Notes: generated by a model not told the origin, from the sequence alone. 61,840 nt of DNA from Bacilli bacterium (GCA_024408095.1 JAKSVI010000006.1:1-61840); one strand, 5' to 3'. Positions 7,026 to 18,169 are shown, counted from the stretch's first letter. Made by a program: numbers and translations.

Positions 7026-8306
7026 ATGGACGACAATAAAGATATTCAAAACCAAGATATAGTCGATGAAAACAAGAAAAAAAAGAAAAATGTTATTAAA
7101 TATGTTTTAAACATATCTTTGGTATTGGTCGTTACTGTTGTAGCGTTAATAATTTCGCTATATGGAAAATTTGATAACGTTGTAGGCATTTTGCAAACAT
7201 GTGATTATCGTTGGATTCTTGCTATTGTTGGCATACTAATAGGGTGTATTTTAGTGAGATCTTTGGTTTTATTTTGTTTCGCTAGATTGTTTACTAGAAA
7301 ATATCATTACCATAGATCGCTCGCTATTGATCAAGTCGGTCAATTTTATAATGCTGTTACCCCTGGCGCAAGCGGTGGACAGATAATGCAAGCTTATACC
7401 TTGAACAAACAAGGGCTAAAGATGTCTTCTGCAATCTCAATCTTAGCAATGTATTCAATTATCTACCAAGCTGTATTATGCATTTATGGTTTAATATCTT
7501 TCATCGTAAAATATGATTTTATTAATGCGATTGGAGTGATTCCTTTCAACCTTGCTGGTTGGTCATTTGAAATCCCTGTTTGGCCATTAACTATTATTGG
7601 TTTTATTGTTAATATTTCGGTAATATTGGTTATCTTTTTAATGGCGTATTGGAATGGGTTTCATCGATTCATTATGGGACCATGTATTACGTTGTTAAAT
7701 AAGATTAAAATTATCAAAAACCCTGCAAAATCCAGGGAAGATTTACGAATTTCTGTTGAGAATTTTAAAATTGAGTTCAAACGTTTGCTTACAAACATAC
7801 CATTTACTTTATTAATTGCAGCATTCTTTTTCATCTATTTAACACTTAAATTTTCTGTGCCATATTTTGTTGGTTTAGCTCTTGGAAACCAAAGTACAAC
7901 CGCCACCCTTTGGGACAGTGTATTTTTATCCAATTATCACCAAATGGTAACAGGGTTAATTCCTATTCCTGGCAGTGCTGGAGTTAGTGAATATTTCTTT
8001 ACAAAACTATTTACTAATTTCTATTATATCAATGGCGTTGATAGTCAGACATTGTGCTCAACAGCGTTATTAATTTGGAGAAGTTTAACATTTACTATTC
8101 CTCTTATTATCGCTGGTATCACCACAGCCTTTTACCACACTAACAATAAGCGTAAATGTATTCCTAATGAAGAGTTTCCAGGAAAGAACTCTCAGACATT
8201 CCTCGATCTTTCTAAAGAGACAATTTCGTTACGTTTACAAGAAGTAGAAGAAGCGGAGAAAAAATCGCGTCTTAAAAAGCTTAATAAGAAGGAGAAAAAT
8301 AAATAA
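7026..8306 (+). CDS. Lysylphosphatidylglycerol-synthase-TM / flippase-like membrane protein (UPF0104)
   Basis: Multiple TM helices with motifs FYNAVTPGASGGQ, PIPGSAGVSE and LIWRSLTF. Confidence 0.85.
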   Translation: MDDNKDIQNQDIVDENKKKKKNVIKYVLNISLVLVVTVVALIISLYGKFDNVVGILQTCDYRWILAIVGILIGCILVRSLVLFCFARLFTRKYHYHRSLAIDQVGQFYNAVTPGASGGQIMQAYTLNKQGLKMSSAISILAMYSIIYQAVLCIYGLISFIVKYDFINAIGVIPFNLAGWSFEIPVWPLTIIGFIVNISVILVIFLMAYWNGFHRFIMGPCITLLNKIKIIKNPAKSREDLRISVENFKIEFKRLLTNIPFTLLIAAFFFIYLTLKFSVPYFVGLALGNQSTTATLWDSVFLSNYHQMVTGLIPIPGSAGVSEYFFTKLFTNFYYINGVDSQTLCSTALLIWRSLTFTIPLIIAGITTAFYHTNNKRKCIPNEEFPGKNSQTFLDLSKETISLRLQEVEEAEKKSRLKKLNKKEKNK

Positions 8307-9493
8307 TGGTAATTGCCATATTTACTGATACATATCCTCCACAAATCAATGGTGTTGCTACTTCAACATACAATTTAGTTCGCGCATTTAAAAATAACGG
8401 ACATCGTGTAATAGTGGTTACAACCCGTTTTGATAAAGGAAAATTAAGCATTAAAGATGACGTTATAAGAATTCCTGGAATTGTATTAAAAAAATTGTAT
8501 GGATTAACTATAACAAGATTTTACAATAGACATGTCATTAAATATTTAAAAGATGCAGGAGCTGAACTTATTCATTACCATAGCGATGCTTCAATGGGCG
8601 TTTTTGCACGAAGGGCTTCTAAAATATTAAATATACCAGTGGTTTATACTTATCACACGATGTATGAAGAATATACTCATTATTTTTCTAAGGGTAAATT
8701 TTTCGATTCTACGATGAAAAAATTAGTGAGAAATTATTCTAGATCGGTTTCTAAACATCTAAATACAATCATTACTCCTACTGAAAAATCAAAAGAATAT
8801 TTATTAAAAGCTGGTGTTAAACAAAATATTTTTGTTATTCCAACAGGTATGAATGTGGACCGCTTTTATATATATAAAGATACTCAGAAATTTATGACAT
8901 CTTTTAAAAATAGACATAACTATAAAACTAACACTAAAACGATTTTATCTTTATCGCGTTTAGGAAAAGAAAAAAGTATTGATGTAACAATAAAATATTT
9001 TGCTAGTTATATTCAAAGTCATCCTAACGATGATGTGAGACTTATAATAGCGGGAGAAGGGCCAGACAAAAAGGAATTTGTCAATTTGGTGAACAAACTG
9101 CACATAAATAAAAAAGTCATTTTTGTGGGTAAAATACCGAACAAAAAAGTAGTTAATTATTATTTAATATCTGATTGCTTTGTTTCCTCGTCACTAACAG
9201 AGACACAAGGCCTTACTTTATTAGAGGCAATGGCCTCAAGAATTCCTGTTTTAGCAAGAAAAGATAAAACAACACTTTTATTAATAAACGACAGCAAAAA
9301 TGGCTTTATTTTTGAGAATTTAGAAGAATTTAATGAAAAATTAGAAATCATATTAACAATGAATATAAAGCAAAAAAATGAGCTCAAAAGCAACATTGAA
9401 TCTTCTTTAAAAAAATATTCATTAGAAACTTTTTATGAGAAGATATTAGAAGCTTATAATTATGCTATTGAGAATCACAATAAGAAAAACTAA
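8306..9493 (+). CDS. GT4 glycosyltransferase, probably 1,2-diacylglycerol 3-alpha-glucosyltransferase-like
   Basis: Motifs FTDTYPPQINGVATS, TYHTMYEEY, SRLGKEK and ETQGLTLLEAMA. Translationally coupled to the flippase-like gene. Confidence 0.85.
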   Translation: MVIAIFTDTYPPQINGVATSTYNLVRAFKNNGHRVIVVTTRFDKGKLSIKDDVIRIPGIVLKKLYGLTITRFYNRHVIKYLKDAGAELIHYHSDASMGVFARRASKILNIPVVYTYHTMYEEYTHYFSKGKFFDSTMKKLVRNYSRSVSKHLNTIITPTEKSKEYLLKAGVKQNIFVIPTGMNVDRFYIYKDTQKFMTSFKNRHNYKTNTKTILSLSRLGKEKSIDVTIKYFASYIQSHPNDDVRLIIAGEGPDKKEFVNLVNKLHINKKVIFVGKIPNKKVVNYYLISDCFVSSSLTETQGLTLLEAMASRIPVLARKDKTTLLLINDSKNGFIFENLEEFNEKLEIILTMNIKQKNELKSNIESSLKKYSLETFYEKILEAYNYAIENHNKKN

Positions 9494-9531
9494 CTATTAT
9501 AATATATAAAGGATATAAGGAGACCAGATCA

Positions 9532-10470
9532 ATGAAACTAGTAAGTGAATTTAAAGAAAATGACCAATTAACGGAGCAACTATTAGTTAATAACGTTACT
9601 AAAGGAGTTTCTGGACCAAGAGCATATTTATCTTTGGAATTAAGGGACTCAAGTGGATCAATTGGTGGAAAAAAATGGGACGCCAGTGAAGAAGATGATA
9701 ATATCTTTGTTATCGGTAATGTAGTAGAAGTAACTTTTACTGTCATTTTATATAACGGAAATCTCCAACTTAAAGTTTTAAGTGGAAAAGTTATCGACCG
9801 CAACAACATTGACCTCGATAAATTCGTACAGCATCCTCCAATTTCAACAGAAGAATTGACTAAACAATATAATGAATTAGTTAAATCTATTAAAAATGAA
9901 ACATGTACGAAATTATTAAATTATTTCACTAATAAATTTATTGATAAATTATTTATACATCCTGCTGCCGCCTCTATTCATCATGAATACAAAAGTGGAT
10001 TAGTTATGCACAGCGTTACAATGGCAAAAATAGCCGACTATTTATGTACCATTTATAAAGATGTTGATAGAGAGTTGCTTGTTACTGGCGCCTTACTTCA
10101 CGATATGGGCAAAATAATAGAATTAGAAGGCGAAGTAGTTTATAAATATTCATTAGAGGGTAAATTATTAGGGCATATCTCAATTATGACCAGCGAAATA
10201 CGTTCTGCCGCAAAAGAATTAAAATTAGATGATGAAATAGTAATATTATTAGAACATATGGTGCTTTCTCACCATGGACAATTAGAATTCGGTTCCCCCG
10301 TTATGCCATTAACAAAAGAAGCTCTTCTATTATCTATGATTGATAATCTTGATAGCAAAATGGTGATTGTTTCCAAGGCATTAGATACAGTAAAGCCTGG
10401 AGAGATGACTCAAAAAGTCTATCCGTTAGATGGAAGATTGTTCTATAAACCAAAAAAAATCGGCGAATAA
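9532..10470 (+). CDS. yhaM: 3'-5' exoribonuclease YhaM (OB fold plus HD domain)
   Basis: N-terminal OB fold, with motifs PAAASIHH, LLHDMGK, LLGHI and SHHGQLEFGSP. Confidence 0.9.
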   Translation: MKLVSEFKENDQLTEQLLVNNVTKGVSGPRAYLSLELRDSSGSIGGKKWDASEEDDNIFVIGNVVEVTFTVILYNGNLQLKVLSGKVIDRNNIDLDKFVQHPPISTEELTKQYNELVKSIKNETCTKLLNYFTNKFIDKLFIHPAAASIHHEYKSGLVMHSVTMAKIADYLCTIYKDVDRELLVTGALLHDMGKIIELEGEVVYKYSLEGKLLGHISIMTSEIRSAAKELKLDDEIVILLEHMVLSHHGQLEFGSPVMPLTKEALLLSMIDNLDSKMVIVSKALDTVKPGEMTQKVYPLDGRLFYKPKKIGE

Positions 10471-10484
10471 TCGTCGATTTTTTT
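10452..10484. terminator. Bidirectional intrinsic terminator between yhaM and hit
   Basis: AAAAAAATCGGCGA-ATAA-TCGTCGATTTTTTT, between convergent genes. Confidence 0.75.
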
Positions 10485-10890
10485 ATAATTTGATTTGTTC
10501 TTGTATACTGGGAAGATTTAAGTCTTTATTATTTTCTTTCATTTCCAAGACAAATCCTTCTTGCTTCTCATATCTAGGAATGACATGAACATGGAAATGA
10601 TTGACTGTTTGTCCAGCTGCTTCGTAGCAGTTAGATAAGATATTAACACCTTTAGCACCAAGCATCTTTATTTGCACTTGTCCAATTCTTTGCGCAACAT
10701 CCATAACTTTATGCATTGTTTCTTGTGGTGTTGCTAAGAAATTAGGATAGTGCTTTTTGCAAATTACAAGAGCATGTCCTTTTGTAACTTGAGAGATATC
10801 TAAAAATGCTAGAACGTCTTCATCTTCATATAGTTTATAACAAGGTATTTCCCCATCTACAATTTTGCAAAATACATCTTTTGTTTCCAT
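10483..10890 (-). CDS. hit: HIT family protein
   Basis: Motifs FCKIV, GHALVI and AGQTVNHFHVHVIPR. Confidence 0.93.
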   Translation of the reverse strand: METKDVFCKIVDGEIPCYKLYEDEDVLAFLDISQVTKGHALVICKKHYPNFLATPQETMHKVMDVAQRIGQVQIKMLGAKGVNILSNCYEAAGQTVNHFHVHVIPRYEKQEGFVLEMKENNKDLNLPSIQEQIKL

Positions 10891-10903
10891 ATTTCTCCTA
10901 TTA

Positions 10904-10930
10904 AAAAGGAGAGCAAACTGCTCTCCTTTT
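10904..10930 (-). terminator. Intrinsic terminator after the lipoprotein pair
   Basis: AAAAGGAGAGCA-AAC-TGCTCTCCTTTT, a perfect 12-bp stem. Confidence 0.75.
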
Positions 10931-10940
10931 GTTTATGTGT

Positions 10941-12809
10941 CTATTTGAATAAATCAGGATATGTTTCAGCAAAGTAGTTGAATACAACAGTATCGTGATA
11001 TTCTAATGACATTTTCTTTAACCAGTAATCTTTGGCTAAGTCTTGATAAGTTGAACCAGCAGCGATAATCTTGGCGACCTCGTTAGTGATATCTTGAATA
11101 TCCTCAGCAGTTCTGCCTAATGAGCTATAGTTTGTATCGCTTGAGCCCATCTTTGTGGAGTTAACGGCTTCTTCAACTTGAACAACATAATATGTGCTAC
11201 CATCTTTGAAGATAATATCTTGATCTTCAGAACCTGGTAATAAATCATTGTTTCTCAAGAAATAGTTTCCAGCAATTCTAGCAAGATATGAACCATAGTC
11301 ATTGTCTTTGCTATATTCATATTCTGCGGATTTTCTTAATCCTGAATTTTCTTGAACTTTTTGCCAACGATCATAAGCAGGAGCGTATTCTGGTTTTGAT
11401 GGATCAGTTTCATTTTCCTTTTTGGAATCACTGACAGTAACGTTGAATAAACGATTTGAGATTGAGGATGGTAATGTACCAGCGCCATCAGAAGCAATGT
11501 ACCAACCAGAAGATGTGTAATCTTTTAATTTGTCTGCTCTTTCTTTTAATTCAATACCGTGTTCAACTGTATAAGTGTTGTTTCCAGTAAATTCAGATTC
11601 AACTGAAGTATCTGTTTTCTTTGGATCAGCATCGATTTTATCAACATCAGTCATCCATAATCCACGATCAGTAGATTTGTAATAACTTTGTGATTCTTTG
11701 CCTTCTTCTGTCTCTTCAACATATTTGAAAACTGGATCTTCAGCTTCGGCTTGTTTCGCTAAAATGTCTTCTAAAACAGTATTTTTATATTTGGTTGTTC
11801 CATCTCCATCTTTTATTGGTTCAACGTTTCCGACCCAAGCATTTGAGAAATCAGTAAACACTTTAGAGACATCAAGTTTAGAACCACCTTCAACTAACCA
11901 TTCTGTATGGTTTTTCCAAATTGCTGATTTTGGAGCAGAAGTTAGAACTTCAAATAAATAGTTCATTAAATATTCGGCAGCTTTGCCATCTTCCATACCT
12001 GAACGAGCAGTGATGGAGAAGACATTTATTTTTCTAGCACGTGAACGTCCAATAGTGCTCTTAGCTTCTTCTAAGAGATATTGTTCATTTAATAATTCCT
12101 TATATATTTCAGGAGTTATTTTATCGTCGATGTAAGTGTTGGTTAAGCTTTGATAATTTTCTCTATGTAAAAGAGAATCTCCACCTAATTCTTCTTGAGT
12201 TTCAAAGACTTCTTCAGGCTCAACTGATGGAAGGACTAAACCTTTATAAGTTGTAGCCTCTTTTGGATGAGAAACGGATTGACTATCATTTAATAAAGAT
12301 TTAAGCATTTCTGCTTCATCAAAGATTGAATCTTCGGTGTATGATCCGCCTGAAACAAGTTTGTACATTCTTTGTGCAATACGTTTTTCAATAGCGGCAA
12401 ATTTACCTGAAACTAAAGCAAATTCGTCTTTTTCCACACGTGGCGATGTTTGATACACTTTGTGATTGTTAATAAAGGTTCTAACAGTATCTAAATCCTC
12501 TTTATTTTTAATCTTTTCAGCAATTGATTTCAAATCATCATATTTTCCAAAGGCACTATAAGAGTATTCAATGATAATCTTTTCTGCAACGTTAGAAGGA
12601 ATATTGCCTTCTCTCCATGCATCATAGACTTCCTCCATTGTTTTGTAACCATTTACAACAGTAGAATCCTTTTCAAAACTTACTGATGAATCAGAATAGT
12701 TGTCTGGCTTAGCATAGACATCTGAGGCTGTTGTAGTGTTACATGCGGTTAAGCCTAAAAGGCCTAACAAGGATAAGCACGCTAATTTCTTAATACTATT
12801 TCGCTTCAT
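10941..12809 (-). CDS. Large lipoprotein, possibly a degenerate PrsA/parvulin-like paralogue
   Basis: ATG 12809 has an AGGAGG RBS. Lipobox LTAC. Remnant parvulin-like segments RARKINVFSI, GWY...LPSSISNRLF and YYVVQVEE. Confidence 0.5.
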   Translation of the reverse strand: MKRNSIKKLACLSLLGLLGLTACNTTTASDVYAKPDNYSDSSVSFEKDSTVVNGYKTMEEVYDAWREGNIPSNVAEKIIIEYSYSAFGKYDDLKSIAEKIKNKEDLDTVRTFINNHKVYQTSPRVEKDEFALVSGKFAAIEKRIAQRMYKLVSGGSYTEDSIFDEAEMLKSLLNDSQSVSHPKEATTYKGLVLPSVEPEEVFETQEELGGDSLLHRENYQSLTNTYIDDKITPEIYKELLNEQYLLEEAKSTIGRSRARKINVFSITARSGMEDGKAAEYLMNYLFEVLTSAPKSAIWKNHTEWLVEGGSKLDVSKVFTDFSNAWVGNVEPIKDGDGTTKYKNTVLEDILAKQAEAEDPVFKYVEETEEGKESQSYYKSTDRGLWMTDVDKIDADPKKTDTSVESEFTGNNTYTVEHGIELKERADKLKDYTSSGWYIASDGAGTLPSSISNRLFNVTVSDSKKENETDPSKPEYAPAYDRWQKVQENSGLRKSAEYEYSKDNDYGSYLARIAGNYFLRNNDLLPGSEDQDIIFKDGSTYYVVQVEEAVNSTKMGSSDTNYSSLGRTAEDIQDITNEVAKIIAAGSTYQDLAKDYWLKKMSLEYHDTVVFNYFAETYPDLFK

Positions 12810-14709
12810 AGCAAACTCCTCCTTTTTCATAGTTCTTTGAGCTGGCAGCTTTTTTGAAGCTTACAGCACAAACTGTGTTGACTCTTCTACTGTTCTGACT
12901 TGTTTCAAAAGATACATTATCAGTATCGTAGATGTTCATCGCGCTACCAAATTTAATACCATGAGTATAAAGTTCTAATTCAAGTAAGTTGAGATATGTT
13001 TTCCATGCATCTTTCAATGAATCAGCACGATCCCATTTATTCTTTTGTCTTAGGGTTGAGATATAACCATCAATGGTCTCATCAATACCTTTAGAGAATG
13101 TAACGGTAACACTCTTAGTGCTTAAGTAATTTAATAAGTTTTCATAAATGCGGTATGAGTAGGCATTATCAAATCCGCTAATTTCACCTTCAACTTCACT
13201 GGCTCTTGTTTTCAAATCTGTTGATTCGAGGCCTGGTAAATAGTTGACATATGTTGTATATGGTTTCTTTTCACCATCTTGGTCGAAGGTTGGATAATAT
13301 TTATTATCTGGTGTATATGTTGTGTAATAATCTTTAAGTGAAACTTGTTTTGCTTTTTCAGTGTATGTAGTTTCATCATTGAAGATTGATTTTTGCATAA
13401 TCATCAAGTGAATGCCGTGTTCTGAACGGACACCGATAATTACACGACCTTCTTCATCTGTTAAATAACGTAATTTTTCACTTGCAACGTAACCAAATCT
13501 AGAACTATCTTTAATAGTTTCTTCGGAAACTCTACCTGTTTTTGGATCGAGTTTTTGGTTTGTTATAACAAATGGTCTATGTAAGTTCAAATAGTTATTA
13601 TAGTATACATTACGTGGATAATATGCTTCGTTATTATCGTTAACTGTATCTTTGTTTTCATCGGTTGTAACATCTTTGTTTAAACCAATTTGGATAAAGG
13701 CATCATATGGCACTTCTTCAAGGCCAAATGTCTTAAGTGTGTTTTCAACTTCTGATGTAATTCCTAATCCTTCTTTAACTTTCTTAACAGTTTCAGCACT
13801 ACGAGTTGAAACATTATTAAAGACAGTATCATAAGCATAAATACCTAATTTGAATTCATTGACGAAAGATGTGGTTGTTGACATAATTCCGACATCTCCA
13901 CCTTTTGCGGCACTGCCTGAATCACCTTTATCAGCGTGTTCACGCGCGATTTTAGCAAAAGTATAAAGATAAGAATTAGAACCGCCAACTTTTGTAGAGT
14001 CAATGAGTTCGCTCATAACACTTCCTAATGTATCAGCTTCATCTTCAGAGATTGTTCCTTTAACAAAATCTGATGAACCATTGCTTAAACTAATTAAGAT
14101 ATGACGAATATGATATGGGAATTTGGCATCAGCCTTAACACTTGAATCTGTAATGTATTCATTTGTTAAAGAAGACATGTTTGTTTTTAAATACCAGTTC
14201 TCATATTCTTCTTTCTCATACTGATATATGTATTTTTCTCTAAGCTCTTCTTCGTTTTCGACGTTATTCTCTTTTAGAATCTTGTCCCATTCAGTTTGGA
14301 AACTTGTTCCTGAAGATTTTGCGTTCGCTTGAGCTTTTTCTTTGGCTTTTCTTACTGCTAAGTCAGCATCACTTTTTATACCGTTATAGGTTTTGAGTGT
14401 TACTTTGACTTTGCCAGGTTCTTCTGGTTGGCTATTGTTGTCGCTTACAAAAGTAGTCTTTTCGTATGTGTAACGAATTAAGTTTTCTTCTACTGTTGAA
14501 TAGAAAGAACTAATTTTGTTTGGATCTTTTAGATATTCGCCGTAAAGATCGTTTGCCTTAATTTCAATCTTTTCGCCGCCATATCCTGTGATTGTAACAA
14601 TTGCACCTTTGCCATCAGTGACAGCACTTGATGTTGTGTTACAAGCAGATAATCCGAGCGCAGCAATGAATGTAGTAACTAAGCCAATTGATAGTTTACT
14701 TTTTTTCAT
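12796..14709 (-). CDS. prsA: Large PrsA-like peptidyl-prolyl isomerase (foldase) lipoprotein
   Basis: Lipobox LSAC. Parvulin motifs YHIRHILI, FAKIAREH, SAAKGGDVG, FVNEF and VRSEHGIHL. Located next to yhaM and hit, as prsA is in Bacillus. Confidence 0.75.
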   Translation of the reverse strand: MKKSKLSIGLVTTFIAALGLSACNTTSSAVTDGKGAIVTITGYGGEKIEIKANDLYGEYLKDPNKISSFYSTVEENLIRYTYEKTTFVSDNNSQPEEPGKVKVTLKTYNGIKSDADLAVRKAKEKAQANAKSSGTSFQTEWDKILKENNVENEEELREKYIYQYEKEEYENWYLKTNMSSLTNEYITDSSVKADAKFPYHIRHILISLSNGSSDFVKGTISEDEADTLGSVMSELIDSTKVGGSNSYLYTFAKIAREHADKGDSGSAAKGGDVGIMSTTTSFVNEFKLGIYAYDTVFNNVSTRSAETVKKVKEGLGITSEVENTLKTFGLEEVPYDAFIQIGLNKDVTTDENKDTVNDNNEAYYPRNVYYNNYLNLHRPFVITNQKLDPKTGRVSEETIKDSSRFGYVASEKLRYLTDEEGRVIIGVRSEHGIHLMIMQKSIFNDETTYTEKAKQVSLKDYYTTYTPDNKYYPTFDQDGEKKPYTTYVNYLPGLESTDLKTRASEVEGEISGFDNAYSYRIYENLLNYLSTKSVTVTFSKGIDETIDGYISTLRQKNKWDRADSLKDAWKTYLNLLELELYTHGIKFGSAMNIYDTDNVSFETSQNSRRVNTVCAVSFKKAASSKNYEKGGVCYEAK

Positions 14710-14889
14710 TTTCTACTCTCCTTTGCCTAAATATGTAGCGTTAATATTTTATATATTAGTGATTTTTAGTGCAAGAATTATTTAAAGAATATACTTTAAA
14801 GCAGTAAATGTTATGTATTCAATCCGACTTTTTCTTACATATATTTTTGCTTATTTTTTGTCCTACATTTAAAAAAATTATTGTATTGA

Positions 14890-14918
14890 TTGAATACATT
14901 TCATCTATTTTCTATAAT
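14890..14918 (+). promoter_or_regulatory. SigA-type promoter of the suf operon
   Basis: TTGAAT-N17-TATAAT. Confidence 0.7.
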
Positions 14919-14943
14919 ATAGTTCGTTTTGAGGTTGAAGAGT

Positions 14944-15765
14944 ATGTCGACACTAAGAATTAAAAATCTTCATGCTGAAGTTGAAGGAAAAGAAATATTA
15001 AAAGGCATTAATTTAGAAATAAATAATAATGAAACCGTAGCAATTTTAGGTCCTAATGGACATGGAAAGTCTACTTTGTTTAATGTAATAATGGGGCATC
15101 CTCGTTACAAAGTAACAAAAGGTTCAATTTTCTTTGATGATGTTGATGTTCTTGCATTATCTACTGATCAAAGATCAAAACTTGGATTATTTCTTGGATT
15201 GCAAAATCCATCTGAAGTTCCAGGAGTTATAAATTCTGACTTTTTAAGGGCGGCAGTCAATGCTCACAATGACAACCCGATTTCTACATATAACTTTTAT
15301 AAGGTTTTAGATAACGCCGTAAAAGAAGTACAAATGCCATTTGATTTAGCAACACGTTCTTTGAACGAAGGATTTTCTGGTGGAGAAAAGAAGAGAAACG
15401 AGATTTTACAAATGTTGTTATTAGAACCAAAAATTTCTATGTTAGATGAAATTGACTCGGGTTTAGATGTAGATGCCATACAAATTGTGGCTGATGTCAT
15501 AAAAAAACAACAGCAAAAAGGGCAAGGTTTTTTAATCATTTCTCATTATGCTAGATTATTTGACTTAATCCAACCTACAAGAGCAATTGTGATTATTAAT
15601 GGAAAAGTGGTTTTGGATGGTGGAAAAGATATTATTCAACGAATTGATAAAACAGGATATGAGTTTATAAAAACTGAACTTGGAATTGAAATACAAAAAG
15701 AAGAAGCAAAAATGAACACTGTATCAATAGGCAGTTGTGCAGTTAAAGAGGCTATTAAAAAATAA
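14944..15765 (+). CDS. sufC: Fe-S assembly ATPase SufC
   Basis: Motifs GPNGHGKST, GFSGGEKKRNE and LDEIDSGLDVD. ATG 14944 follows a GAGG RBS. Confidence 0.95.
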   Translation: MSTLRIKNLHAEVEGKEILKGINLEINNNETVAILGPNGHGKSTLFNVIMGHPRYKVTKGSIFFDDVDVLALSTDQRSKLGLFLGLQNPSEVPGVINSDFLRAAVNAHNDNPISTYNFYKVLDNAVKEVQMPFDLATRSLNEGFSGGEKKRNEILQMLLLEPKISMLDEIDSGLDVDAIQIVADVIKKQQQKGQGFLIISHYARLFDLIQPTRAIVIINGKVVLDGGKDIIQRIDKTGYEFIKTELGIEIQKEEAKMNTVSIGSCAVKEAIKK

Positions 15766-16535
15766 TGATTTGCCAAGATTTTCGAATTGTAAATTTAAAT
15801 GAATTTTCTGATAAAAAATCAGCCTCTTTTGATATAAAAAATAATGAAAAACTTTTATTCATAGGATGCAAAGATTTTAATCTAACAATAAATGTTCTAG
15901 AAAATGTCTCAGCTTTAATTTCAATGTTATTTTTGAACGACGATTCATCTTTTAAATTAACGATAAATTTAGCAAAAGATACGCAAATCGAGGCTTTTTG
16001 TGCTGATTTTGCGTTTGAGACATTTAAAAACAATGTATCGATAAATCTATTAGGCGAAGGTGCTATTTGCAATTGGCATCTTGCTAGTTTATCTCAAAAA
16101 GCCGACAACAAATCGCATTCAATTTCAGCTACACACTATGCAGCAAAAACAACTGCTCGTATTGATAACTATGGCGTAGCGAAAGATGACTCACATTTAA
16201 CATTCCTGGGTGTGAGCCATATAAAAGATGGATCTGCCAAATCTAAGACATCACAAAATGCAAAAATTATGGTGTTTGATGAGGAAAGTATTGGAACCGC
16301 TAAGCCTATACTAAAAATTGATGATAACGATGTTGTTGCTAACCACGCAGCAGTAGTTGGAAAAATAAATGAAGAACATTTATTCTATTTAACCTCACGT
16401 GGGCTCTGCGAAGATAGTGCAAAAGCACTAATTACATTAGGATATTTGAAACCAATACTTGCAGGTTTTGATGACAACCATCAGAAACAAATCATGGATC
16501 TTATAGAAGGGAGAATGAATAATGTACGATATTAA
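15765..16535 (+). CDS. sufD: Fe-S assembly protein SufD (short form)
   Basis: Motifs PILKIDDNDVVANHAAVVG and LFYLTSRGL, in the expected operon position. Confidence 0.88.
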   Translation: MICQDFRIVNLNEFSDKKSASFDIKNNEKLLFIGCKDFNLTINVLENVSALISMLFLNDDSSFKLTINLAKDTQIEAFCADFAFETFKNNVSINLLGEGAICNWHLASLSQKADNKSHSISATHYAAKTTARIDNYGVAKDDSHLTFLGVSHIKDGSAKSKTSQNAKIMVFDEESIGTAKPILKIDDNDVVANHAAVVGKINEEHLFYLTSRGLCEDSAKALITLGYLKPILAGFDDNHQKQIMDLIEGRMNNVRY

Positions 16536-17751
16536 AAATATTCGTAGTTTATTTCCAATGCTGAAGAACAAAAAAATGCAGGGAAAAAATCTTGTATTTT
16601 TAGATAATGCTTCCACAACATTTAAGCCACAATCAGTTATTGATGCAGTTGTTAATTACTATTCAAATGAAACAAGCAACTCCCATCGAGGAGATTATGA
16701 TCTTTGTTACAACATGGATGTAAAGATTAATGATGTCAGGAATAATGTTGCTAATTTTGTTAAATGTAATCCAAATGAGGTTGTTTTTACAAGTGGTGAC
16801 ACGATGTCATTAAATACGATTGCTTATGGTTATGGTTTGAAATTCTTAAAACCTGGCGATGAAATAATTTTAACAGAAGCTGAACATGCATCTAATATGT
16901 TGCCTTGGTTTAAGGTAGCTAAAATAACTGGTGCAAAAATTGTTTATATTGAGCTTGATGAGAATTTAAAAATAACGGTAGAAAACTTTAAAAAAGTTAT
17001 CTCAAAAAATACGAAAATTGTCTCAATTGCACATATTGGAAACATATTAGGATATATCAATCCAATTGAAGAAATCGCTGCAATTTGCCACTCTTTTGGC
17101 GCAATTTTAGTTCTTGATGGTGCACAATCAGTCCCTCATATTGAGACAAATTTTAAAAAGTGGGACGTCGATTTCTTAACATTTTCAGGTCATAAAATGT
17201 GTGGCCCAACTGGTATCGGATGTCTAATAGGAAAATATGAATTATTGATTAAAATGGATAGTTTTATTACTGGTGGTGGAATGAATGTTACATTTGATAA
17301 AAATGGTCATGTTGAGGAATTACTACCACCTGCAAAGTTTGAAGCAGGAACTCTAGATTTAGCAGGAATCTCAGGTCTAAACGAAGCCATCAACTTATTA
17401 ACATCAATTGGAATGGATGAAATTTCAAAGCACGATAAAGAACTTCATGACTATGCAGTTAAAAAATTAGAAAATAATCCAAACATTATTATATATAATA
17501 AAGATACAGATACAGGAATTTTAACTTTTAATGTAAAAGGTGTTTTTCCACAAGATGAAGCCACTTTACTTAATAGTAAAGGAATAGCCGTAAGAAGCGG
17601 CCAGCATTGCGCAAAAGCTTTTACTAAATTATGTGAAAATAACGCAACAGTTAGAATGTCAACATATCTTTATACATCTATAGAAGACATTGATGCATTT
17701 GTTGATGCATTAATTAATGGAGGTGACATTTTAGATGCCTATTTCGCTTGA
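16522..17751 (+). CDS. sufS: Cysteine desulfurase SufS
   Basis: Motifs LDNASTT, DGAQ, FSGHKMCGPTG and RSGQHCA. Confidence 0.95.
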   Translation: MYDIKNIRSLFPMLKNKKMQGKNLVFLDNASTTFKPQSVIDAVVNYYSNETSNSHRGDYDLCYNMDVKINDVRNNVANFVKCNPNEVVFTSGDTMSLNTIAYGYGLKFLKPGDEIILTEAEHASNMLPWFKVAKITGAKIVYIELDENLKITVENFKKVISKNTKIVSIAHIGNILGYINPIEEIAAICHSFGAILVLDGAQSVPHIETNFKKWDVDFLTFSGHKMCGPTGIGCLIGKYELLIKMDSFITGGGMNVTFDKNGHVEELLPPAKFEAGTLDLAGISGLNEAINLLTSIGMDEISKHDKELHDYAVKKLENNPNIIIYNKDTDTGILTFNVKGVFPQDEATLLNSKGIAVRSGQHCAKAFTKLCENNATVRMSTYLYTSIEDIDAFVDALINGGDILDAYFA

Positions 17752-18169
17752 TAATAACATGATGAGACAAATCATCATGGATCATTACTCTAATCCAATA
17801 AATAAACATCAACCAAAAGATGATGGTTTTGCAAAAGTACATATGCATAGCGATAATTGCATTGATGATTTAGATATTTTTCTAAAAGTTAATAATGACG
17901 TTGTTGTTGATGCGTGCTTTGATGGTGTTGCGTGTACAATTTCAACCGCTTCCACAGATATTATGTGCGATTTATTAAAAGGAAAAACAAAAAACGAAGC
18001 TTTATATATGATTGAACAATACCATCACATGATGCATGAAGAAAATTTTGATGCGGATGTTCTTGAAGAAGCTATTGTTTTTATTAATACAAGCAAACAA
18101 GCTGCAAGAATACGATGCGCAACGATAGGTTGGAATGCAGCCGATAATATTTTGAAGGAAAAGAAATAA
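17735..18169 (+). CDS. sufU: SUF system scaffold / sulfur transfer protein SufU
   Basis: IMDHY motif and three Cys motifs: NCIDD, ACTIS and RIRCA. Confidence 0.92.

Follow-up and report, generated by a model that had tools for sequence, protein, structure and literature searches.

A 61,840-nucleotide (nt) stretch of DNA from a Bacilli bacterium (GCA_024408095.1 JAKSVI010000006.1:1-61840; below, the window) carries two genes for large lipoproteins, here called A and B, one behind the other on the minus strand. The window has about 31% G+C, reads well in translation table 11 and belongs to an assembly of 1.11 Mb with an estimated completeness of 83%. Open reading frame (ORF), homologues and profile matches identify gene A (12796..14709) as coding for an enlarged PrsA orthologue of 637 amino acids (aa) with a complete parvulin catalytic set. 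Gene B (10941..12809) codes for a 622-aa protein which, by the profile links described below, is very probably a PrsA homologue (a paralogue of A) that has lost the catalytic histidines and acquired three insertions.

An earlier interpretation made from the sequence alone (the sequence-only reading) described two overlapping, co-oriented lipoprotein genes of 637 and about 622 aa; the ORFs, the lipoboxes and a 14-nt overlap of the two genes (12796..12809, minus strand) bear this out. The stop codon of A occupies positions 12796-12798, 14 nt into gene B, and the ribosome binding site of B, AAGGAGG, lies within the 3' end of A. The start of B is most plausibly the ATG at 12809, which this site precedes; the frame is open back to 12830 (629 aa). 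A GGAGAG site is found upstream of the start of A. The two genes are translationally coupled.

Gene A and its parvulin domain

All segments of A and B described below are on the minus strand. The product of gene A begins with a signal peptide and the lipobox LSAC (14641..14709), whose Cys23 is invariant in 41 aligned homologues. It continues with an N-terminal chaperone domain of PrsA/SurA type (aa 24-195, 14125..14640), detected by hhalign, and thus has both the lipobox and the N-terminal domain of a PrsA. The first part of the parvulin domain (aa 196-287, 13849..14124) was delimited by a Rotamase_3 match to aa 198-287 and by alignments with parvulin domains in the PDB; it includes YHIRHILI (with H200 and H203), SAAKGGDVG and FVNEF (282-286). 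The last parvulin strand, RSEHGIHLMIMQ (13390..13428), contains SEHGIHL (429-435) with the catalytic His434; R428, G432 and H434 are invariant. Between these two parts the alignment places an insertion of aa 288-427 (13429..13848) with the conserved motif YYPRNxxxNxYLNxH, and behind the last strand a C-terminal extension of aa 441-637 (12799..13389) with a conserved Cys614/Cys633 pair. Each of the parvulin motifs named in the sequence-only reading (RHILI, FAKIAREH, SAAKGGDVG, FVNEF and SEHGIHL) could be located in the translated sequence, but the distance between FVNEF and SEHGIHL, given there as about 130 aa, measures 142 aa.

In the alignment of 41 sequences (A2) the catalytic columns H200, H203 and H434 are occupied in all members and D263 in 40; S266, G271, G274, M276 and F286 are also invariant. 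This conservation indicates that the catalytic set of A is complete. Among 8,000 candidates scored, 596 homologues of A were found at E <= 0.001, most of them 580-690 aa long. Many match PF13616/PF00639 (Rotamase_3/Rotamase), and the few source names are 'peptidylprolyl isomerase' from uncultured Bacilli. With A itself, Rotamase_3 gave 19 bits in hmmscan, which is below the cut-off, and 23.4 bits against a cut-off of 22.5 in a genome scan, in which A was the sole parvulin match of its own genome. The score is marginal because the parvulin domain is split. The A family profile matched PrsA/SurA parvulin domains in the PDB with E 7e-6 over the first half of the domain only; profile alignments to A stop at about residue 288 and leave the C-terminal helices of the N/C domain unaligned.

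In the insertion of A the residues P365, R366, N367, N375 and H377 are invariant. A profile of the insertion gave no significant match in the PDB (best E 0.0095), and a profile of the C-terminal extension (A8) gave nothing there below E 0.098. A likeness of the insertion to the class C acid phosphatase e(P4), a lipoprotein of H. influenzae (3ocu), was borderline (E 0.0018 for the whole A family profile and 0.0095 for that of the insertion) and was set aside as probably due to chance. The Cys614/Cys633 pair is present in 41/41 close relatives (A2) and in 22 of the 28 members of a wider set (A5), which suggests that an anaerobe here forms a disulfide in a protein outside the cell. DsbA-like Thioredoxin_4 was not found in the window's own genome, at its 83% completeness.

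Gene B and the tandem pair of a sister family

Pfam and NCBIfam searches with B returned no match, those with 26 of its relatives yielded nothing relevant, and the B profiles A1 and A3 found nothing in the PDB except a signal-peptide match to SusD (E 0.33). A word-indexed search yielded 37 homologues. A full search with a hidden Markov model (HMM) over 1.84 billion representatives extended the B family to 324 clusters at E <= 0.001, of which 204 reach E <= 1e-30. When genomes of the whole class were searched with the broadened profile A3, strong matches were obtained in the window's own order only, accompanied by weak ones (E about 6e-5) to ORFs of about 289 aa in another family, f11. These belong to lipoproteins of about 285 aa, here called short-B, which are encoded directly 3' of an ordinary PrsA of about 330 aa, short-A, with Rotamase_3 matches of E 1e-15 to 1e-22. 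Short-B is present in 78 of 81 f11 genomes, and short-A was followed by short-B in 29/29 extracted loci, with gaps of -13 to +19 nt. In several of these genomes hit lies directly downstream of the pair.

This short pair connects B with PrsA. In hhalign comparisons the A family matched short-A with a probability of 99.7% (E 1.9e-25), short-A matched short-B with 99.8% (E 1.7e-27), and short-B matched the B family with 99.2% (E 6.2e-20) over 292 collinear columns spanning B 1-622. Short-B also matched the solved full-length PrsA structures 7l75, 9ibn, 6vj4, 4wo7 and 5htf with E values of 1.4e-20 to 7e-12, the best being 7l75 (E 1.4e-20). The crosswise comparisons gave 1.6% (E 0.031) for the B family with short-A and 98% (E about 1e-13 to 1e-14) for the A family with short-B; in one of the latter runs (A2 against the short-B family A4) the match had 98.3% and E 1.4e-14 and covered A 1-282. 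That B is a homologue of PrsA follows from these profile comparisons transitively only.

Since short-A is the counterpart of A and short-B that of B, the two lineages separated after the duplication had taken place; as far as profile comparisons tell, this duplication is also much older than the doubling in size. The sequence-only reading had proposed a duplication together with a doubling in size. What stands of this is that B is a diverged PrsA paralogue and that both proteins were enlarged from a pair of about 330 and 285 aa, but the duplication precedes the enlargement by far. The arrangement in f11 is orthologous to that in the window, as A resembles short-A (E 1.9e-25) and B resembles short-B (E 6.2e-20); it differs in that the proteins are of normal PrsA size, that the upstream member is anchored by a transmembrane helix and that penicillin-binding proteins were found in all 41 f11 genomes sampled.

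Two side observations concern the short proteins themselves. Short-A is anchored by an N-terminal transmembrane helix and has no lipobox (loci L089-L118), and in 6/29 genomes it lacks one or both catalytic histidines.

Parts of B were also compared singly with mature short-B. B 530-622, which comprises the last strand and the C-terminal helices, matched with 98% (E 1.7e-13), and B 215-300, comprising the last N-domain helix and beta1/alpha1, with 93% (E 3.4e-7). The N region, B 24-95, gave E 0.0036. For B 301-424 and B 471-529, which are insertions, no match to mature short-B was found. The matched pieces are collinear with the order of segments in PrsA. Of three short-B proteins scanned in Pfam, two had sub-threshold matches to Rotamase_2 (E 0.04 and 0.08), one of these two having also SurA_N_3 (E 0.0026), and the third had none. 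In a protein-language-model look-up of B among named clusters, all 10 set-representative rows listed were Rotamase, Rotamase_2, Rotamase_3 or SurA_N_3 (PrsA/PpiC-type) with scores of 0.93-0.95, and the ten best family-bearing matches were all of one family or clan; this is a lead only, as the counts of shared features were low and a third of shuffled proteins also yield ten concordant matches.

On this basis the segments of B can be placed. A signal peptide with the lipobox LTAC (12741..12809), in which Cys23 is invariant in the alignments A1 and A3, is followed after the first insertion (aa 96-214) by the last N-domain helix and beta1/alpha1 of the parvulin domain (aa 215-300, 11910..12164; aligned by hhalign to short-B 80-148). 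This segment contains RARKINVFSI (257-266), the part ARKINVFSI with Lys260 at the position of the first catalytic histidine. The second insertion (aa 301-424, 11538..11909) is conserved, with the motif ES.YTGS..Y..E.G, and T408 and G418 occupy 169/178 and 177/178 of the aligned residues, respectively; its profile found no match in the PDB. Behind it the segment GWY..LP..RLF (aa 425-470, 11400..11537; GWY..LPSSISNRLF at 435-455) is collinear in the full alignment with the GG-L-G/substrate pocket of PrsA. After the third insertion (aa 471-529) come the last parvulin strand TYYVVQVEEA, with YYVVQVEE at 540-547 and Tyr541 at the second histidine position, and C-terminal helices of PrsA type (10944..11222; hhalign to short-B 194-266). 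The sequence-only reading had assigned to B a lipobox layout and eroded look-alikes of the parvulin motifs without the histidines, which agrees with Lys260 and Tyr541 and with the location of the three motifs at beta1, the GG-L-G/pocket region and the last strand.

Among 185 members of the B family, 116 have K, 26 have H and 12 have N at position 260; at position 541, 163 have Y and two have H, and histidine at both positions occurs in none. In short-B the second position is also Tyr in 28 of 29 cases (Y223). As regards the catalytic histidines, the label 'pseudo-enzyme' is apt for B, to judge by these alignments. Beyond this loss B has an invariant residue set of its own, which qualifies the label: R259 (173/173 aligned residues), E165 (171/171), W436 (179/179) and the above G418 are fixed or nearly so, and F455 is found in 172/179. 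Such fixation indicates a protein that is under purifying selection and is not decaying.

Conservation, neighbourhood and expression of the pair

The co-occurrence of A and B within the order was determined in a sample of 201 genomes with profiles of A and of B (the first B profile). The A profile matched 197 and the B profile 168 of them, the latter distributed over the families as follows: f1 64/65, f3 63/66, f7 31/31, f6 1/1, f2 6/11, f8 2/12, f4 0/2 and f5 0/12. In families missed by this profile, a B-like ORF was found with a broader profile right behind an A-like ORF in 4/4 loci (two in f8, one each in f4 and f5). Adjacency was counted at the best place per genome among the best 150 matches listed for each profile, which gave both genes for 125 genomes. 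Among these listed matches, A preceded B on one contig and in the same orientation, with at most 2.24 kb between the matched stretches, in 120/125 genomes; in the remaining five the A and B matches were on different contigs. In 22 genomes where the matches reached both gene ends, the A-B junction measured -7 to +8 nt. In 31/31 loci fetched from relatives an A ORF was followed by a B ORF, and every B in them had a lipobox. Each of the two genes occurs once in the window's own genome. Longer A proteins go with longer B proteins (Spearman 0.64, n=19 loci), with the reservation that the start positions are approximate and that genomes related to each other are not independent samples.

The gene hit lies directly downstream of B in 18/20 related loci. 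In one of the other two the sequence breaks off 123 nt past B, and the second lies on a 4.9-kb contig of a genome that has its hit on another contig. Convergent yhaM was found in 7/20 related loci. The order A-B(-hit) is kept across the order, and the co-conservation that the sequence-only reading had asked to be checked is thereby confirmed.

In the window, hit/hinT (10483..10890, minus strand) is the third gene of the conserved A-B-hit array and matches the Mycoplasma-type HinT model with E 5.5e-28. The convergent yhaM (9532..10470, plus strand; model match E 6.7e-92) is a synteny marker of the prsA locus: yhaM, yhaL and prsA are adjacent in B. subtilis according to PMC2731908, and gene A likewise has yhaM in its neighbourhood. 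Both matches were obtained under the curated cut-offs of their models, and hit and yhaM are thus the neighbours they had been taken for. The two genes have a bidirectional terminator in common. Another hairpin, of 12 bp (10904..10930, minus strand), lies 3' of the B stop codon; its calculated folding energy is -16.8 kcal/mol (z -4.3), and none of 200 shuffled sequences was equally stable. A terminator shared by A and B had been claimed here, and a stable hairpin is indeed present, but its U-run is short, and the ribosome binding site and ATG of hit follow within about 15 nt. It is therefore possible that the hairpin terminates transcription incompletely or serves as a processing site, and that hit is transcribed together with A and B.

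An Rfam scan of 9000-16000 gave as its sole match a sub-threshold Leu_leader (10453-10559, minus strand; 28.6 bits against a gathering score of 50), which falls on the bidirectional terminator between hit and yhaM and is most likely a terminator look-alike. Divergent from gene A is a suf operon (14929-18169) with sufC, short sufD/sufB-like, cysteine desulfurase-like and sufU-like ORFs, of which sufC and sufD were confirmed by NCBIfam and the other two were named from the ORF list. The window also codes for an MGlcDAG synthase-like glycosyltransferase (8306-9493) and a flippase-like protein (7026-8306).

In one horse metatranscriptome, short contigs at least 99% identical to both genes were found, four on B (11066-11418, 11450-11660, 11923-12185 and 12437-12620) and three on A (13408-13610, 13824-13973 and 14431-14630). 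That no such contig covers hit carries no weight as evidence.

The window's own genome (83% complete) gave no match to the penicillin-binding transpeptidase domain PF00905, and one of 26 genomes of the family to which it belongs, f1, had one. Elsewhere the domain occurred in 8/8 genomes of f2, 8/8 of f8, 16/24 of f7 and 41/41 of f11. It seems that the cell wall was lost within the window's order. Wall loss as a simple driver of the enlargement of A and B is ruled out by f7, which has large A/B pairs and yet penicillin-binding proteins in 16 of 24 genomes.

Possible working of the pair and its relation to known systems

The PrsA proteins of Bacillota (B. subtilis 4WO7, L. monocytogenes PrsA1 5HTF, B. 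anthracis 6VJ4) share with the pair the lipid anchor, the order of N/C chaperone and parvulin domains and the yhaM-adjoining locus, and their His/Asp/His set is kept in A. In contrast to them, A and B have roughly double the length, the parvulin domain of A is interrupted by a conserved insertion of 140 aa, A ends in an extension of 200 aa with a Cys pair, and the genes form a fixed, translationally coupled pair. PrsA works as a dimer, according to PMC11853100. The same source reports that pneumococcal PrsA has Ile150 and Tyr235 at the catalytic histidine positions and no peptidylprolyl isomerase (PPIase) activity, that it needs its parvulin domain to bind and fold pneumolysin, and that 7L75 is the PrsA of S. 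mutans. In its working B would be most like these PPIase-inactive streptococcal PrsA proteins (S. pneumoniae 5TVL, S. mutans 7L75). Both histidines are replaced in them, and at the second position they share Tyr with B (Y541) and short-B (Y223); one of them, 7L75, is the solved structure that short-B matches best (E 1.4e-20), and they still assist folding. They differ in being the sole PrsA of the cell and forming homodimers, whereas B stands beside an active paralogue and contains about 300 aa of insertions.

A second likeness is to the oversized, insertion-rich PrsA homologues of M. pneumoniae, Mdp436/444/489 (MPN436/444/489, Pfam DUF3713). On the evidence of crosslinks and in-cell maps, the three have been proposed to assemble into a heterotrimeric dome that covers the Sec translocon, and only Mdp444 is reported to keep the catalytic residues (bioRxiv 10.1101/2025.04.25.650208; 10.1101/2024.09.05.611430). 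As these preprints describe them, they have in common with A and B that they are large lipoproteins and distant PrsA homologues with a parvulin domain split by insertions, that one catalytically intact paralogue occurs with degenerate ones in a proposed mixed oligomer over the Sec channel, and that the host is wall-less or wall-poor. In contrast, each Mdp has about 1,300 aa with an internal SurA+PPIC duplication, whereas A and B are single units of about 630 aa, and there are three Mdp paralogues, apparently not in tandem. PF12506 (DUF3713) had no match in A, B or 26 relatives of B, and no Mdp chain appeared in the PDB profile searches with A, B and short-B; by every test run on the sequences, A and B are outside the Mdp/DUF3713 family. 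A search of 301 class genomes with PF12506 also gave no match and is uninformative, the control having matched nowhere.

The arrangement of A, B and hit also resembles the hitABL operon of mollicutes (P80/P60/HinT; PMC1173108, PMC539234), which has the same three-gene layout of a large membrane-anchored protein, a lipoprotein and hinT. In M. hominis, P60 and P80 are reported to form a surface complex, and HinT to bind P80 (PMC1173108). In family f28, 10 of 10 genomes with genetic code 4 and a true Mycoplasma-type HinT have two genes before hinT (loci L123-L132), coding for a protein of 700-790 aa with an N-terminal membrane anchor and then a lipoprotein of 400-590 aa. In f18, a second code-4 family, two tandem lipoproteins precede hinT in 5/5 genomes (L133-L137); in L136 two further genes stand in between. 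The N-domain of the P80-like proteins, taken after the anchor, matched the N-domain of A, taken after the lipobox, with 84% (E 7e-6, 121 columns), and six control comparisons with other regions gave at most 0.4%. The P80-like proteins differ from A in having no parvulin motifs; only the f18 forms keep a 'GLHF' strand, their first-gene products having in 4/5 cases a motif 'DGLHF(V/M)' that resembles SEHGIHL of A. The A HMM matched the f18 first gene in two of five loci (E 3.5e-8 and 6.8e-7) in an unfiltered hmmsearch of a tiny database, with matches that include the signal peptide, and a genome-level search of the five f18 genomes with the A profile gave no match. P60-like proteins gave nothing with sub-regions of B (E 0.4 or worse); a full-length match of the two families (24%, E 9e-4), whose sub-regions were empty, was not counted as support.

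These comparisons suggest a likeness of the f28 and f18 loci to A-B-hit. It is conceivable, and we put it forward tentatively, that A-B-hit is the unreduced form of the mollicute hitABL operon. P80 and P60 would then be a far-diverged PrsA-type foldase pair, made up of an active-lineage subunit and a degenerate lipoprotein subunit, and the tandem pair would be ancestral in the Erysipelotrichia/Mollicutes-like Bacilli.

For the window's own pair we favour, with moderate confidence, the interpretation that A and B are two members of an ancient tandem prsA duplication, in which A would be the isomerase and B a non-catalytic partner acting together with it. A has kept the lipid anchor, the N-terminal chaperone domain and the parvulin domain with its complete set, and has gained an insertion of about 140 aa and an extension of about 200 aa. 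B has kept the lipid anchor, the helix leading into the parvulin domain, its first strand and helix, its last strand and the C-terminal helices of PrsA. A is accordingly a predicted prolyl isomerase, and B, on the model of pneumococcal PrsA, a putative PPIase-inactive chaperone or holdase subunit, which may add a chaperone domain and a parvulin-like module that binds substrate without catalysis. The two would act jointly on proteins that emerge from the Sec channel on the outside of the membrane, most likely as a mixed oligomer held together by the PrsA-type N/C domains, because there are precedents in the PrsA homodimers, the proposed Mycoplasma Mdp heterotrimer and the P60/P80 complex of M. 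hominis. That A and B act in one pathway or complex we consider, by this analogy, an even chance.

Several observations weigh against this interpretation. Compared directly, the A and B family profiles align over the first 84 or so columns only (87-92%), mostly signal peptide; without the signal peptide the N regions give E 0.022, and the parvulin and C-terminal regions less than 1% probability. With E values up to 1 admitted, Pfam assigned no Rotamase, Rotamase_2, Rotamase_3 or SurA_N domain to B or to 26 members of its family. The GWY..LP..RLF segment (B 425-470) does not match mature short-B significantly when taken alone (E 0.052), about 300 aa of B match nothing, and a complete parvulin fold in B would have to be pieced together from matches to parts of it. 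Fused A-B or longer B forms were not found in a search that was weak. None of the RNA contigs crosses the A/B junction, and DNA carry-over in that library is possible. Tight operon linkage would also fit separately acting chaperones, such as Listeria PrsA1 and PrsA2 are reported to be.

The last point leads to the view that B is an independent PPIase-inactive chaperone of PrsA type with clients of its own, encoded in an operon with A for co-regulation only and forming no complex with it. The catalytically dead streptococcal PrsA, as described in PMC11853100, works alone as a homodimer, bacteria with two paralogues such as the reported Listeria pair use them separately, and B has its own set of invariant residues. 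We nevertheless think it rather unlikely, as co-regulation would require neither so strict an order of A and B nor their coupling nor the enlargement of both in parallel, and the comparable mollicute pairs are reported as complexes (P60/P80, PMC1173108; Mdps, bioRxiv 10.1101/2025.04.25.650208). B might also be a surface protein derived from PrsA with a role outside folding; it could serve as an adhesin, for instance, or be the partner at the membrane of HinT, which is cytoplasmic. About half of B (aa 96-214, 301-424 and 471-529) matches nothing known, hit follows it in 18 of 20 loci, and in the same kind of operon of M. hominis HinT is reported to bind P80 of the surface complex, P80 being released as an antigen (PMC1173108, PMC539234). 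Such a role is improbable in view of the strong conservation of the PrsA N- and C-terminal chaperone segments in B, which moreover is a lipoprotein with no predicted cytoplasmic part to reach HinT. Finally, B could be unrelated to PrsA and its motifs a chance likeness in a Lys/Asn-rich proteome of low G+C. Pfam and the PDB gave no match to B, a BLASTP comparison of A with B gave nothing, and the direct A-B profile comparison is not significant. This possibility is close to refuted by the collinear match of B to short-B (E 6.2e-20), two segments of which are significant independently, by the match of short-B to solved PrsA (E 1.4e-20) and by the same genomic position downstream of a PrsA orthologue.

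A word search of the open-access literature, which cannot show absence, found no publication on a PrsA heterodimer or a tandem pair of an active and an inactive PrsA. In Gram-positive bacteria PrsA is the principal catalyst of folding after translocation, and the common view of it is that of a single homodimeric lipoprotein of about 300 aa. Here, a whole order of uncultured gut and rumen Bacilli with small genomes, many of them without detectable penicillin-binding proteins, keeps a fixed pair of a catalytic and a very probably non-catalytic PrsA, each about twice the normal size, and a sister family with a cell wall has the pair in normal size. The pair is real, conserved and unannotated, and fits the emerging picture of multi-subunit PrsA-type foldases, in an evolutionary series leading from the ordinary PrsA to the giant PrsA-like 'dome' foldases of Mycoplasma pneumoniae. 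The B family, at least 324 sequence clusters unannotated in Pfam and NCBIfam, can now be labelled PrsA-like. A-B-hit also gives a candidate origin for the P80/P60/HinT complex of other mycoplasmas. If that relation is true, extracellular folding in the whole Erysipelotrichia/Mollicutes-like branch of Bacilli would go back to the tandem pair as the ancestral machine rather than to a lone PrsA, the pair may have been the raw material for the doubled Mdp dome proteins, and a cytoplasmic nucleotide hydrolase, HinT, would be tied functionally to the export and folding of proteins.

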